A stretch of 64,000 nt of DNA. Source: Phycisphaerae bacterium. GTDB taxonomy: Bacteria > Planctomycetota > Phycisphaerae > UBA1845 > PWPN01. Made by a program: the position numbers and the translations under genes. Positions 28,545 to 32,189 of this stretch are shown here, one piece after another. The stretch lies in the NCBI GenBank assembly GCA_012719955.1, contig JAAXZI010000223.1, positions 500 through 64,499 on the forward strand, given 5' to 3'. The notes beneath the pieces were generated by a model that saw only the letters and a list, made by a program, of their open reading frames with translations, ran no database searches and was not told the origin of the DNA. Every line of letters starts with the position of its first letter. Position 1 is the stretch's first letter.

Positions 28545-29297
28545 TTAGCCGGCCCCGTGCATGGTCTTCACCAGCAGCACGACCCCTTTGGCCAGCAGGC
28601 TGATCATCAGCAGCAGCAACAGCACCGCCACGCTGAAAATCACCAGCGGCCAGGCCGTGTCGAGCAGGCCGGCCGTCGATTCGGCTATCTGGCCGATGAT
28701 GAAGGCGAACAGGCCGGTGAGCAGAATGGCCCCGATGGAGCCGCGCAGGTTGCCCGTCAGCGGCGCCATCCGCACCGTCAGGCAGACGGCCAGGTAGAGG
28801 AACAACCATGTCCGCCAGTCACGATAATCGCTGGCCCCAATGGCGTTGACCAGCCGTTGGACTAGGCTGATGGAGCTGCGAATGATCTCAAAAAAGAGGG
28901 TCAGCGTGGTGGGCAGCCCGAGTCGCTGGGGGCCCGGCTCGGCCATGCTGGCCAACACCGGGGCGCCAAAGTAACGCGAAACCCAGTAGATGGCGGCCGC
29001 ACAGCCCGCCAGTGGAAGCAAGGCCACGATAATCGATCCGATGACCGGCAGGCGCGACTCGGTCTCCGCAGGCGTCTGCGGTGCTCCGGAATCGTCGTCC
29101 TTAATCAACGAGGTATTGTTGACCGTCCCGCCGGTGAGCAGCAGCCCGAGAATGTATCCGAGCTGGGCCACGAGCGTACCCGGCAACAGCAACGAGTTGA
29201 CCACCTTCGGCTGGACCATGGAACTCCAGAGCGAGTGCACGCCCAGGGCCGAAAAGACCACTACCAGCAGCCAGAAGGTAAAAGCGGCATATTCCAT
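28545..29297 (-). CDS. Hypothetical multi-pass membrane protein (M50B-like fold, no HExxH)
   Basis: About 6 hydrophobic segments; LLPGTLVAQLGY where M50-like proteins have PGxxxHELxH. Family call is inference. Confidence 0.55.
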   Translation of the reverse strand: MEYAAFTFWLLVVVFSALGVHSLWSSMVQPKVVNSLLLPGTLVAQLGYILGLLLTGGTVNNTSLIKDDDSGAPQTPAETESRLPVIGSIIVALLPLAGCAAAIYWVSRYFGAPVLASMAEPGPQRLGLPTTLTLFFEIIRSSISLVQRLVNAIGASDYRDWRTWLFLYLAVCLTVRMAPLTGNLRGSIGAILLTGLFAFIIGQIAESTAGLLDTAWPLVIFSVAVLLLLLMISLLAKGVVLLVKTMHGAG

Positions 29298-29719
29298 TGC
29301 AACCGTCTCCCTACGAAACAGCACTACGGTTATCGGCCGAAACCCCCTTCATGTCTGAGAAACATGAAGAGACCGGCAACCAGATTTACCGGCCATGACC
29401 AAAGCGCGGGAGTGCCGGCGACAGAGTATGGATCTTCTCGTTGCTTCCAGTTGGAGTGTTGCGTGCTTCTGCAGCGGATGGGCGGGGCCGTGGTTATGGC
29501 CGGATGACCGGCCGTTGTGGTCCGAAGGCGCGCGCAACTGCGGAACTGGAAAGGGCGTCAGTCGCAACCTGCGCCGCTTTGCGTGCTGCTCTATGGATGT
29601 TTCATCGTGGCGTCTGAGGCCGCTGTTGCGTGCATAGACGCGAGATAAAAGCCTTCTTATAAGCCTTTCGTACTGAAGAGCTGGATCCCGCTGAAAACCG
29701 CGAAAAAACTGGATTTTTG

Positions 29720-29748
29720 TTGCCGGATCTGCCGTTTTAGAGTATATT
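29720..29748 (+). promoter_or_regulatory. Sigma70-like promoter with no convincing downstream CDS
   Basis: TTGCCG-17 bp-TATATT. Confidence 0.5.
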
Positions 29749-29754
29749 GATGGT

Positions 29755-30340
29755 GGAAGGCGTAAGGCCTTCCGGGCCCCGCGGCAACATGTCCGGCCGC
29801 GGAGATTTGACAATGCGATAGTTTCTCTGACGGTTGGTTCACCCTTCTTCATGGGGGACCGGAATGCCCAGAACGTCGATTCTTATCGGCGGCATCCGTG
29901 GTTCGCTGCGCACCGGTCGGTGTCACGCGAACCACCGGGTACACCTGTTTGGAGAAGCCATCAGTGCTCATGCGATGGAGGCTGCTCTATATGGCCGGCC
30001 TCTACGCAGACGGCTGATCGATTTCGGCTCGGAGGGCGAACGTGGTCCTCCGGGATGAATTCGGATGGTGTGACGGGAGGCTCACCGGCGAGCAAGTTCT
30101 ACCGTAGAGACAGCCGGTTTCCGGGCCTCCAGGGTTCCAGTTGTGAGGAGAAAAATCGACAGAGCACACCAGGACAACTCAACCGCGAAAGCGGGCGGAT
30201 GTAAGACATACTAATAAAAGAATGAGCCTTGAAAGGGCTCGGCTGACGGCCCGCACGATCAGCGGGACCCAAGCCGGATGACCAACGGCGAACGCACAGG
30301 AGTTCCTGCTCGGTAGCGTCCGCCGTTGGCCCCTTTTTAC
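29755..30340 (+). ncRNA. Candidate long structured ncRNA (unclassified)
   Basis: Starts just after the promoter with a hairpin, contains at least 8 stems, ends in a long hairpin plus T-tract; no ORF with SD and coding-like composition. Confidence 0.4.
30282..30338 (+). terminator. Putative intrinsic (possibly bidirectional) terminator
   Basis: CCAACGGCG...CGCCGTTGG stem with an inner CAGG/CCTG helix, then CCCC and TTTTT; the U-tract is offset, so imperfect. Confidence 0.4.
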
Positions 30341-30363
30341 TCAGCACTGCGCGGGTGGGTTTC

Positions 30364-31583
30364 TCATCTCTCGGCAGTGACGGCGGCCGTTCCGCGAGCT
30401 TGGCGCGAGGCCTTGGCCGCGCGCAGTATGTTCAGTAAGTCGGCCACCTGTCGCTGAGCGGAACTTGTATTTCGGACGACCAGCAGGCCATCGTAAATGC
30501 CGATCGCGCCACTCTCACCTTCGGGCGCCCAGGAGTCCGGCTCGACCATGCTGGTGATCAGCTTCAGCAATTCCGCAGCGTCTCGATCGCGCAGGGCTGA
30601 AAGTATCTCGGCAACGAGTGGCTCAGCAGCACTGCTTCCGGCCCGGCCGCCGGGCGGGATGCTGCTGCCTGGTCCTCACTCTCAGGCGCCGCCGCTTGGG
30701 GCCGGTTCGGGTGGGCGGACCTGGCGGGAGTTCGAGAGGTGCGCACCTTGATGGAGAATACCGCAAGCGTATCCTTCTGACTTGGGGTGAGAGGCTGGCC
30801 GATGAGGTCACTGCATTCGTAAGCGCGAACGACGGTGCGCGAGTTCAACTCTTCTTGGGTCGAGACGCGGATGATGCCGTCCATCACGTCATATGTTGCC
30901 CGGCCAACGCCGCCAGCCGCCAGGCTGACGTTGTCCAGGACGATGTCCAAGACAGTGCCGAGCTTCACGTCTCGAAGGTTCAGGCTGTCTGTCTCAGTGG
31001 TGCGCTCGATGTTGATCAGAGCCAAGGCCGCCCAATTCACGTTGAGACTCAATTGGCCCTGCAACCTCAAGTAATCTATCGCATCGGCCAGGGTGGTGCC
31101 CTCGGCCAGGTCTACCGTTGACAGGACCATCGTGAGCTTTTCACGCGCGGCCCGATCGACTTCAGATTCCGTGTACGATGCAACTTCGGCAGGTCGGGTA
31201 ACCGTTGCGGCGGTCGGCGGCTTGATCATCTTCTCGCCGGCTTGCGTCACGGCCGGCGCTGGCACCCATGCCGTGTGCTGGGGCAGGAGGAAGCTCACGA
31301 GGAGAACGGCGGCGGCAACAGCAAACATCGTGGTGGTGCGCATAATCCATCTTCTCGTTCGACCGATTTTGCCAGACTCGCCGGCCAACGCGGCGGCGTC
31401 TCCGAATTCATCCAACGCGGTCTGGATGGCTTCTTCCCGGGTGAAACCGCGCGCCATGAGCTCGTCGAGCTGATCCTCCATGTGGGTGCGCAACTCGCGG
31501 GCGATGGCCGTCCGCTGGTTTCCACTCAGGTTGAGAAAACGCGCCAGCAGGCGCAGGTAAGACTCGAACTCCTGCTCGGACAT
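30364..31583 (-). pseudogene. HAAS (permease-prefix-1)-TM-STN/secretin-N-like protein, split by a -1 frameshift near 30600-30670
   Basis: ORF 30564-31583: IARELRTHMED...EEAIQTALDEFG, TM helix, RAYECSDL. Its expected continuation EILSALRDRDAAELLKLITSMVEPDSW...GLLVVRNT...VADLL lies in the next frame (30364-30570). May be an assembly indel. Confidence 0.65.
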
Positions 31584-31663: not shown

Positions 31664-32023
31664 TCAGGTCGGCTCGGGACCGATCCGCAGGGCGGCCAGC
31701 GCGGGGTTGAGAAGTCGCCGGATGCAGTTGACGTACTCCTGCCACTGGCTTGCCTGGTCTTGAAGCATTCGCCGGCCCGTGGGGGTCAGCTCGTACCATT
31801 TGCGGTCGCGCCCGGTGGTGTCGTCCCATCGGCTGGTGATCGCGCCGTCGGATTCGAGTCGGTGCAGCAGGGGATAAAGCGTGCCGGCCTGGATACGCAC
31901 GAGGTTGCCGCTGGCTTCACGGATACGCTTCTGGATGAGATACCCATACTGCGGCCCCTCGGCCAACGCCGAAAGCACCATCAGGTCCAGGCTGCCTCGT
32001 ACCAGATCACGATCAAAGGTCAT
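31664..32023 (-). CDS. PadR-family transcriptional regulator
   Basis: RGSLDLMVLSAL...YGYLI...GTLYPLLHRLE...RKWYELT..G. Confidence 0.93.
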   Translation of the reverse strand: MTFDRDLVRGSLDLMVLSALAEGPQYGYLIQKRIREASGNLVRIQAGTLYPLLHRLESDGAITSRWDDTTGRDRKWYELTPTGRRMLQDQASQWQEYVNCIRRLLNPALAALRIGPEPT

Positions 32024-32189
32024 AGGGCTCCCATCCAACTCATGTATCTGGACTATATATAGCACAACTATCTATCCGACGCAAGCGGTTTTTCGACCTT
32101 CTTGACGATTTCTGGGCGAGGGGGGTGTGCACCCCATAAGATCCATTCGGCCTGTTGGATATTCTACTGATGTGTCGCTGGAGATAGAG

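Follow-up and report, generated by a model that had tools for sequence, protein, structure and literature searches.

We describe a self-contained gene of about 585 nt that is real as a conserved unit in one family of uncultured Phycisphaerae. At about even confidence, we favor the reading that it is a family-specific dual-function RNA gene, in which a structured 3' RNA core is combined with a 5' ORF of the arrest type in an SgrS/SgrT-like build. The unit lies on the plus strand of the window, i.e., the whole stretch of 64,000 nt of contig JAAXZI010000223.1 that was analyzed. In an earlier note on this DNA, the region was put forward as a candidate structured non-coding RNA of ~590 nt that has a promoter and a terminator of its own. 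The structured RNA is upheld for the 3' part, but 195 of the about 585 nt are a conserved ORF of 64 codons.

A unit with its own promoter and terminator

From promoter to terminator, the unit recurs across one GTDB family of Phycisphaerae, nearly always as one copy per genome. Both the location and the sequence of its promoter and terminator are conserved in about 20-30 genomes. The distance between them is 575-695 nt in nine homologues from six genera, and 16 of 19 further loci have a like architecture. The features of the unit in the window are as follows.

Immediately upstream of the promoter, plus strand: GGATTTTT
29720..29748, plus strand: sigma-70-type promoter, with the -35 element TTGCCG (29720-25), a 17-nt spacer and the -10 element TATATT (29743-48)
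29755..29863, plus strand: 5' UTR of ~109 nt, with two stems
29755-73, plus strand: 5' UTR stem GGAAGGC/GCCTTCC
29779-802, plus strand: 5' UTR stem CCGCGGC/GCCGCGG
29853-58, plus strand: purine-rich Shine-Dalgarno sequence GGGGGA, 5 nt upstream of the ATG
29864-30058, plus strand: small ORF of 64 aa, product MPRTSILIGGIRGSLRTGRCHANHRVHLFGEAISAHAMEAALYGRPLRRRLIDFGSEGERGPPG, then stop
29898-935, plus strand: stem GTGGTTCGC/GCGAACCAC, inside the coding region
30028-54, plus strand: stem CTCGGAGG/CCTCCGGG
30041..30052, plus strand: arrest-type core Arg-Gly-Pro-Pro, codons CGT GGT CCT CCG
30066..30172, plus strand: variable spacer with a long branched hairpin D, in which UGGUGUG/CACACCA closes the nested helix
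30076-130, plus strand: nested helix GGAGGC..ACCGGC/GCCGGT..GCCTCC within hairpin D
30145-50, plus strand: purine-rich, SD-like GAGGAG in the spacer, with no start codon downstream
30183..30194, plus strand: hairpin A, CCGC-GAAA-GCGG
30207..30339, plus strand: conserved 3' RNA core, matched by covariance model R1 at 77.9 bits
30224-40, plus strand: hairpin B, GAGCCT-TGAAA-GGGCTC
30241-75, plus strand: hairpin C, GGCT (30241-44) / AGCC (30272-75) around CCCGC (30250-54) / GCGGG (30262-66)
30283..30338, plus strand: intrinsic terminator, in which CAACGGCGAACG (30283-94) pairs with CGTCCGCCGTTG (30317-28), followed by T5 (30334-38)

The promoter, the stems and the terminal hairpin with its T5, as pointed out in the earlier note, are all present in the sequence at these coordinates. 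A promoter scan over 2 kb returned exactly one site, TTGCCG-17-TATATT, where 0.4 were expected, and transcription is predicted to start near 29755 on the plus strand. The pattern TTGC(C/T)N-17-TATA(T/C)(T/A) recurs at 16 of 19 further loci, where it stands 27-140 nt before the ORF, and it also precedes the versions of the unit that have no ORF. The promoter scan and the conserved spacing support the proposal of an independent unit with its own promoter and terminator. Judged by sequence, it is predicted to be a delimited transcript of ~585 nt, which would start at a strong promoter and end at an intrinsic terminator of high stability. The 5' UTR ranges from 27 to 134 nt among homologues, and both of its stems are restricted to the window or its genus (g1), with no conservation outside g1.

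The next gene was said to be convergent, and it is so in the window and at loci L021 and L022, while at L024 it is 680 nt away. No same-strand gene follows the unit in the window, and in the gene order the conserved terminator stands between the ORF and any downstream gene. There is partial synteny, with a divergent gene for a 259-aa membrane protein near the unit in five genera and a convergent PadR-HAAS operon in three, and the neighbors vary from genus to genus.

The folding energy of the 596-nt plus strand, -265 kcal/mol, does lie beyond that of shuffled controls, which is -228 +/- 7 (z = -4.99; none of 100 shuffles as good); the minus strand gives z = -3.85. No known RNA family accounts for the unit, as had been surmised. 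A scan of 29500-30500 found no Rfam family (c-di-GMP-I, 6S, SRP, RNase P, tmRNA, OLE, ROOL and others), whether the gathering thresholds or E <= 10 were applied, and gave no support to the suspected likeness to a c-di-GMP-I riboswitch. A housekeeping RNA was also rejected, since 6S, SRP, tmRNA and RNase P RNAs are located elsewhere in the genome.

The small ORF and its peptide

The ORF has the family consensus MPxMPEI(I/V)GE...SPLRLRLxDFSGEGERAPP and a length of 63-75 aa in homologues. It was open in all 10 of the first homologues, with a purine-rich SD upstream, and it is found in single copy in 20 of the 35 family genomes (11 genera); 73 metagenomic protein clusters contain it as well. None of these 73 small-protein homologues is named or has a Pfam domain, no NCBIfam family matched the five homologues tested, a profile from 40 members had no match among PDB chains, and the peptide profile had no match outside the family in 400 genomes of the phylum.

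The entropy by codon position is 0.34, 0.30 and 1.17 bits for positions 1, 2 and 3. Changes in the last 13 codons are nearly all at synonymous third positions, and the synonymous changes in the ORF include serine switches from TCG to AGT. Among 25 distinct sequences, the residue at a given position in the final 16 codons stays invariant, although R and A are each written with four codons, L with six, and G, E, S and D with two to four each. By this pattern, the ORF is clearly under purifying (coding) selection at the amino-acid level. The codon-position entropy also contradicts the claim that the region is purely non-coding, in that a translated ORF would explain 195 nt of it.

Conservation is uneven along the peptide. 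The N-terminal MPEI(I/V)GE segment and about 19 residues just before the core are conserved, and the middle region is poorly conserved. The copy in the window is divergent (RGPP, S/G swapped, N-terminus MPRTSILIGG), and compared with a congener it differs by 12 synonymous and 35 non-synonymous codons, which is a high non-synonymous rate. The stem at 29898-935 sits in the fast-evolving middle of the ORF and is missing in the congener G002, and the stem at 30028-54 consists of conserved codons for S-E-G...P-P-G. Of the stems in the earlier note, the 3' ones (A, B, C and the terminator) are conserved, the 5' UTR pair is confined to the window or its genus, and the stem at 29898-935 is not kept in G002. 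In 22 members the maximum 15-residue Kyte-Doolittle mean is 0.79-1.33, so that no signal peptide or TM segment is found by hydropathy; the peptides are acidic or hydrophilic. The peptide is short and of low complexity, and it is probably disordered. Other frames in the region were rejected: none of the frames of 117 aa (29851-30204, plus strand), 167 aa and 82 aa (both minus strand) in the gap has a family match, and the 117-aa frame is not open in G002.

An arrest-type motif near the stop codon

The ORF family ends in GER(A/G)PP. R, P and P are invariant in all 25 distinct sequences, and the second motif position is A in 23 and G in two. In the window the stop is one codon past the RGPP core, and stalling is predicted with CCT (30047-49) as the P-site codon and CCG (30050-52) as the A-site codon. 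Neighboring codons drift, but those for Pro-Pro are fixed (CCT in 24 of 25 sequences, CCG in 25 of 25), which suggests that either decoding or the RNA itself constrains them. The tail after PP has 0-3 codons in most copies, 9-30 residues in a few, and as many as about 45 in proteins from metagenomes. Because the length of the tail varies, the sequence past the motif is taken to be unconstrained.

The stalling function of R-(A/G)-P-P is taken from published work (PMC12992588, PMC10951233, PMC10987492). RAPP and RGPP are the strongest arrest cores, are resistant to EF-P, and are rare in proteomes save near the C-termini of small proteins (PMC12992588); the mechanism of stalling has been described (PMC10951233). 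By this comparison, we infer that the ORF encodes an arrest-type peptide that would stall the ribosome.

The spacer and the 3' RNA core

The spacer is variable. G002 retains its nested helix, where GGAGGC/GCCTCC is replaced by GGGGGC/GCCCCC. In the non-coding parts AGGAG is over-represented (z = 3.6), with one copy per RNA; of the motifs counted in 22 homologues against dinucleotide shuffles, it alone stands out. A second ORF behind this SD-like element was rejected for want of a conserved start codon or frame. A Rho-blocking (TnaC-like) model was likewise set aside, as the spacer is G-rich and folded and not rut-like, and is kept only as a remote option.

The structured 3' part of the unit spans ~135-200 nt and comprises hairpins A, B and C and the terminator. 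These stems are conserved with compensatory changes, and the linkers are conserved as well, as the expectation of homologues with covariation required. Hairpin A has counterparts in the same place in G002 (CCGC-GUAA-GCGG), L021 (CCGC-AUAAA-GCGG) and L162 (CUGCC-GAAA-GGCAG). The core that is described by R1 consists, in order, of an A-rich linker, hairpin B, hairpin C, the linker GGATGAC and the terminator. RNAalifold finds double changes in 12 of its 21 pairs. In the model-fitted alignment, 92.7% of cells are paired versus 32-41% when the structure is slid, and none of 500 shuffles matches this; in a MAFFT alignment, which is unfitted and carries a hand-written structure, the values are 85.6% versus 29-45%, with 15 of 28 pairs compensatory. 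Sense matches to R1 score 73-124 bits, and antisense matches at most 40 bits. Folded alone, the 3' part reaches z = -2.64 against shuffles, which is only moderate.

Within the unit, conservation is highest in the terminator. Its upper stem is variable and covarying, with compensatory changes, and its lower stem is nearly invariant; the exact lower-stem pattern occurs once each in 12 of the 35 family genomes and not at all in a reversed control. On the plus strand it was missed by a simple terminator scan, and the support for it is the conservation of the hairpin plus G-Y-C-G-U-U-U-U-A-C. The relaxed pattern ACGGCGAAC..GTTCGCCGT, sought in all genomes, gave mostly chance palindromes in unrelated phyla.

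The core is more widespread than the ORF. It is present in 30 of the 35 family genomes (14 of 16 genera), and R1 had no match outside the family in 300 genomes of the class, in a search of limited sensitivity that scored 10 candidates per genome. Promoter and core with no detectable ORF are found in 11 genomes of five genera (g4, g5, g10, g15 and two of the three g7 genomes), and second copies that have no ORF occur in G007, G014 and G050; versions of this kind were read directly in the sequence. Thus, the RNA module, as read from these sequences, is conserved independently of the ORF. A possible ORF remnant in G047 suggests that the ORF may have been lost repeatedly rather than gained; the independence of the core also fits an ORF that is a dispensable passenger.

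Discussion

The core most likely functions as an RNA in its own right, sRNA-like or protein-binding, and we infer that it has targets. An ordinary mRNA for a small protein, with 3' structures that are a stabilizing 3' UTR and terminator without a function of their own, is an improbable alternative. Coding selection on the ORF is clear, a terminator is plausible as a stabilizer, and the z-score of the 3' part alone is modest; but the core and promoter persist without a detectable ORF in those 11 genomes, the second copies have no ORF either, and the core has conserved linkers and compensatory changes in hairpins B and C. The opposite view, that the whole is a purely structured non-coding RNA of ~590 nt with a fortuitous ORF, would agree with the strong folding z-score, with an ORF that has no protein-family match, and with the genomes in which the core exists without it. 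However, 20 genomes and 73 metagenomic clusters preserve the frame with its start and stop, most of the variation falls on synonymous third positions and includes the serine switches, and six leucine codons at one invariant Leu are inexplicable by an RNA stem. The codon pattern contradicts this view, to which we give next to no weight. As little credit goes to a CsrA-titrating sRNA of the CsrB/RsmZ kind. The genome encodes two CsrA homologues, AAGGAUG-like sites are found in several homologues of the unit, and the window has four GGAUG in about 240 nt; nevertheless, compared with dinucleotide shuffles, 22 homologues have too few GGA (z = -2.6) and no enrichment of GGAUG (z = 1.1), and the loops of the conserved hairpins B and C have no GGA. 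On these motif counts the CsrA sponge was rejected.

Two further alternatives concern the peptide. The ORF could be a classical arrest-peptide leader that acts in cis, through terminator read-through or on the divergent or convergent neighbors (the membrane protein and the PadR-HAAS operon). The partial synteny and the fact that known RAPP peptides all regulate a neighboring gene (PMC12992588) speak for it. We find it very unlikely, since the gene past the terminator is on the opposite strand (window, L021, L022) or 680 nt away, the terminator is so strongly conserved, and neighbors differ among genera. The other alternative is a dual-function RNA without stalling, where the core is functional and the product of the ORF is an ordinary small protein of the cytosol with the conserved C-terminal DFSGEGERAPP as a binding or degradation motif, the resemblance to RAPP being coincidental or a cause of mild slowing. 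MPEI(I/V)GE and the C-terminal block do resemble two short linear motifs with a disordered acidic linker between them, the majority of RAPP-like motifs found in normal proteins cause no stalling (PMC10987492), and there is no downstream gene to regulate. On the other hand, tails of 9-30 residues past PP in some copies, and longer ones in metagenomic proteins, are odd for an obligate C-terminal motif, RAPP/RGPP is avoided in proteomes outside arrest peptides (PMC12992588), and the Pro-Pro codons stay fixed as CCT CCG amid drifting neighbors. We hold this alternative to be a serious one, though on balance unlikely.

For the dual-function gene with an arrest-type ORF, which we favor, the following course of events can be proposed. 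Within the predicted transcript, the core with its hairpins, single-stranded A-rich linkers and terminator is the part that is common to almost the whole family. The 5' third would be translated into a 64-aa cytosolic peptide, whose last ~19 residues (SPLRLRLxDFSGEGER-A/G-PP) have about the length of the exit tunnel and end in the RAPP/RGPP core. The stalled ribosome would come to rest immediately 5' of the folded spacer and the core, and during the stall the N-terminal MPEI(I/V)GE would be outside the tunnel, where it may serve as a handle for a cellular factor that releases the ribosome. Since there is no gene downstream, a stalled ribosome would decide what becomes of its own RNA, possibly as a roadblock to 5'-end-dependent decay or as a remodeler of the spacer. 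We hypothesize, tentatively and in the expectation that it may well be wrong, that the unit is a riboregulator with a RAPP/RGPP arrest peptide inside an RNA gene, in which the stall senses a cytosolic condition via MPEI(I/V)GE and sets the stability, processing or conformation of a trans-acting core, not downstream translation. If true, this would be arrest-peptide control with RNA as its output.

The arrest peptides with RAPP/RGPP include ApdA, ApdP, the 'RQH family', CruR and the Streptomyces lividans uORFs (Sakiyama 2021 PMC7897499; Fujiwara 2024 PMC10987492; Morici 2024 PMC10951233; Fujiwara 2025 PMC12992588). Like these, the ORF described here is small (<300 aa), has an invariant R-(A/G)-P-P that is 0-3 residues from the stop in most copies, and combines ~19 conserved residues before the core with a poorly conserved middle and variable sequence past the motif. 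It differs from them in that the signal peptide or TM segment, which is typical though not universal there, is absent. While they are usually directly upstream of a regulated gene, no co-transcribed gene follows here; instead there are a conserved structured RNA and a strong terminator, and stalling of this peptide is only predicted. To our knowledge, arrest peptides are known only as cis-switches of a downstream protein-coding gene.

Dual-function sRNAs such as SgrS/SgrT, RNAIII/hld, SR1/SR1P and AzuCR have been reviewed (PMC12310071). The unit resembles the SgrS/SgrT type in its short (here predicted) transcript with its own promoter and intrinsic terminator, in having the ORF 5' and a conserved RNA module 3', and in having, in some lineages, shorter homologues without an ORF. 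Homologues of SgrS in some lineages are likewise reported by Horler and Vanderpool (2009) to have no ORF and to be shorter. Unlike the SgrS/SgrT type, the unit is much longer (about 585 nt, 63-75 aa), its host belongs to the Planctomycetota and not to the Proteobacteria or Firmicutes, and its peptide bears an arrest motif. We know of no characterized dual-function sRNA with such a motif. The ermC leader of Bacillus subtilis, studied by Bechhofer and co-workers, is said to be a '5' stabilizer', where a drug-induced ribosome stall protects a coding mRNA. In a similar way, a ribosome parked on the short leader ORF would shield the RNA downstream from 5'-end-dependent decay, but here the stall would be intrinsic to RAPP/RGPP and the cargo would be a non-coding core.

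Calls of 'structured ncRNA' in GC-rich genomes need a codon-level check against homologues. The conserved unit couples a peptide of the arrest type with a structured RNA core, has no downstream gene, and would extend both concepts. It would also give a poorly studied phylum two unannotated families, one of RNAs and one of small proteins.

A small reading frame under coding selection

On translation of the homologues one reading frame is kept:

29864-30058, +, small ORF of 64 aa with a GGGGGA-N5-ATG start

Over its last 16 codons, compared in 25 distinct sequences, the residues stay virtually constant even as their codons drift. Arg is encoded by CGT, CGG, CGC or CGA, Ala by GCT, GCC, GCG or GCA, and one invariant Leu by six codons; across the final 13 codons, entropy is 0.34 bits at position 1, 0.30 at position 2 and 1.17 at position 3. 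This is coding selection, and RNA stems are unable to yield it. It contradicts the earlier note, which had read 29720-30340 as purely non-coding. The Pro-Pro codons are an exception to the drift, being CCT (24/25) and CCG (25/25) with a low-GC member included, which suggests a constraint on decoding or on the RNA.

The family consensus has the N-terminus M-x-x-[MI]-P-E-I-[IV]-G-E, a variable, mostly acidic middle of ~35 residues, and the C-terminus S-P-L-R-L-R-L-x-D-F-S-G-E-G-E-R-A-P-P followed by 0-4 residues. The copies in the window and its congener are divergent (MPRTS..., DFGSxGERGPP) with start, length and stop all kept. We have little doubt that the ORF is translated and selected. A profile search gave 73 protein clusters from metagenomes and MAGs, all unnamed and without Pfam domains; no relatives of the peptide were found in Pfam, NCBIfam or PDB.

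A structured RNA core 3' of the ORF

All homologues share one order of elements 3' of the ORF, namely D, AGGAG, A, linker, B, C, linker, terminator:

Hairpin D, first element 3' of the ORF, long and variable
AGGAG element, after hairpin D, purine-rich, without a start codon
Hairpin A, after the AGGAG element, small
Two A-rich linkers, between hairpins A and B and between hairpin C and the terminator
Hairpin B, after the first A-rich linker, GRGCCY-loop-GGGCYC
Hairpin C, after hairpin B, GGCC/GGCC closing, loop often GUGCAGGCCGAC

RNAalifold on 18 sequences predicted hairpin B and the terminator, with double changes in 12/21 pairs. With R1, a covariance model of this core, scores were 73-124 bits for sense copies and no more than 40 bits for antisense ones. 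The earlier note had named homologues with covariation as a check, and these were found for the 3' core in two alignments. The R1-fitted alignment (24 sequences) has 92.7% of its cells paired, against 32-41% for slid partners, and 0/500 shuffles reached the observed values. In a MAFFT alignment, unfitted to structure and read with a hand-written structure that also covered hairpin C, the figures are 85.6% and 29-45%. Here compensatory changes occur in 15/28 pairs, and in the inner stem of C two pairs have both partners changed, one in 10 sequences and the other in 8. The sequences behind the covariation counts are related, and one count was made on the model-fitted alignment. The core is very likely a functional RNA. 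No known family fits, with no Rfam match at gathering thresholds or E <= 10. The 6S, SRP, tmRNA and RNase P RNAs, whose signatures the earlier note could not match, are located elsewhere in the genome; therefore the core is a separate, undescribed RNA family.

Promoter, terminator and folding

The motifs listed by the earlier note were all found where it had placed them. The promoter, TTGCCG-17-TATATT, is the sole promoter-like site in 2 kb (consensus scan; 0.4 expected), and in the suggested folding comparison 29745-30340 (+) reached -265.3 kcal/mol, where dinucleotide shuffles gave -228.2 +/- 7.4 (z = -4.99). The minus strand has z = -3.85; by halves, the 5' UTR plus ORF has z = -4.5 and the 3' part z = -2.64.

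In the congener (G002) the promoter is TTGCCT-17-TATATT, the length ~580 nt and the terminator as in the window; the unit of G016, from another genus, is short (201 nt). The lower terminator stem CAACGGCGAACG...CGTYCGCCGTTG occurs exactly once per genome in 12/35 genomes of the GTDB family (reversed control 0), with GYCGTTTTAC always next on one strand and a TTGCCN-17-TATA(T/C)(T/A) promoter 575-695 nt upstream of the conserved terminator. Its lower eight pairs are invariant, hence uninformative on pairing, and suggest a sequence-specific use.

On the minus strand, 30214-30240 carries hairpin B and then a T-rich run, flagged as terminator-like; the T run of the G002 counterpart, ATTTTTTGTTTTTTGA, is much stronger. 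This signal could halt transcripts arriving from the convergent operon.

Locus and neighbours

The unit sits in a ~1040-nt gap of a 5.3-Mb MAG in 262 contigs. The flanking genes are both on the minus strand:

28545-29324, -, multi-pass membrane protein, 259 aa, no Pfam match, gene start towards the unit
30564-31583 (possibly on to 30364), -, HAAS-domain gene, 339-aa ORF, gene end towards the unit
31664-32065, -, PadR gene, preceding the HAAS-domain gene

The PadR-HAAS operon is convergent to the RNA gene, also in genera g9 and g12. That the next gene is convergent, as the earlier note said, holds for the window, the complete genome CP070790 and locus L022; at L024 that gene is 680 nt off. The HAAS ORF end (30564) overlaps a 68-aa ORF in another frame (30364-30570) by 7 nt. 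Because the CP070790 homologue has 411 aa, the window's copy may carry a frameshift or an assembly error.

The membrane protein is the divergent neighbour in five genera (g1, g2, g3, g7, g14), and is kept also at loci without the peptide ORF. Between its gene and the promoter, ~110 nt (29443-29561) have weak copies (66-75% identity) on contigs C49, C208 and C36 of the same genome and may be a small dispersed repeat.

Distribution

A DNA search of relatives initially gave the 3' end alone, in G002 and G016. All genomes compared are MAGs. The peptide profile matched 20/35 family genomes in 11/16 genera, single copy each, with no match in 244 other genomes of the order or in a 400-genome phylum sample. 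The core model matched 30/35 family genomes in 14/16 genera; run over 300 genomes of the class, with few candidates (10) scored in each, it gave no match beyond the family. Core-only genomes belong to genera g4, g5, g10 and g15, plus two of three g7 genomes; where recognisable, the promoter of these loci is the same, followed by a shorter unit (~200-420 nt) without the RAPP ORF. Three genomes holding the full unit have a second sense copy of the core without the peptide ORF (83-98 bits):

G007:C117:19494-19633, sense, second core copy
G050:C28:24205-24344, sense, second core copy
G014:C208:3523-3662, sense, second core copy

Thus, the core is the family-wide element. Judged by its occurrence, the peptide gene is a 5' module, strongly conserved yet dispensable. 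A short frame in the ORF-less G047, MSGLDLMRRRPEGSRLRV..., may be a decayed ORF remnant; if so, it would weakly favour loss of the ORF over gain.

Further regions singled out in the window's genome are C250:14597-14809 and C180:28034-28198. In G017 (L152 / L182) the core is broken off after hairpin B and a phage-like gene follows (MAQGSRIEWTEATWNPVTGC...), which we take to resemble the phage Gp37/Gp68 family. tRNA and tmRNA genes serve as integration sites, and by analogy the core or terminator may be one.

Predicted arrest motif and proposed mechanism

Among known arrest cores, R-A-P-P and R-G-P-P are the two most robust, RGPP being usually the stronger; their arrest is EF-P-resistant, and the motifs are depleted in bacterial proteomes and enriched near small-protein C-termini (PMC12992588). 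The present family resembles these arrest peptides in its core, C-terminal position, small size and conserved tunnel-length segment ahead of the core. Unlike them, it has no signal peptide, TM segment or downstream gene. Tails of 9-30 residues follow the motif in a minority of copies, and of up to ~45 among metagenomic proteins; therefore, residues beyond the motif are unconstrained. At one locus (L157, metagenome contig Ga0180109_1372010) the usual core is replaced ~280 nt past the peptide ORF by a small signal-peptide gene (MKKGLFVLVCLLAVFAFTSG...); rearrangement or chimerism of the contig may account for this.

RAPP-like motifs of ordinary proteins are mostly non-stalling (PMC10987492), so stalling here is something that we infer. 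We lean towards real stalling at the predicted motif. A small protein that does not stall, carried on a functional RNA, is a possible but rather doubtful alternative. An ordinary mRNA whose 3' UTR is structured is unlikely, being contradicted by the ORF-less core copies, and a cis-leader of a neighbouring gene is very improbable given the gene orientation and the conserved terminator. The genome has two CsrA genes, but GGA motifs are not enriched, and we give a CsrA sponge hardly any credence. The same applies to a pure ncRNA, in the face of the codon statistics.

The layout is that of SgrS/SgrT-type dual-function sRNAs (PMC12310071): the ORF lies 5' and a conserved RNA module 3', the unit has a promoter and a terminator of its own, and some homologues lack the ORF. 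Since this architecture is joined here to an arrest-type ORF without a downstream gene, we propose a dual-function RNA in which the fate of the core would depend on stalling. The ribosome would stall at R-G-P|P, one codon ahead of the stop and ~10 nt ahead of the base of hairpin D, and would influence what becomes of the core attached to it. Most plausibly it would act as a roadblock to 5'-end-dependent decay or would remodel the spacer, and the conserved exposed N-terminus could be a release handle. We put forward this coupling of the stall to RNA fate only tentatively. It would be unusual in that the arrest-type peptide ORF has only the RNA itself downstream to regulate.
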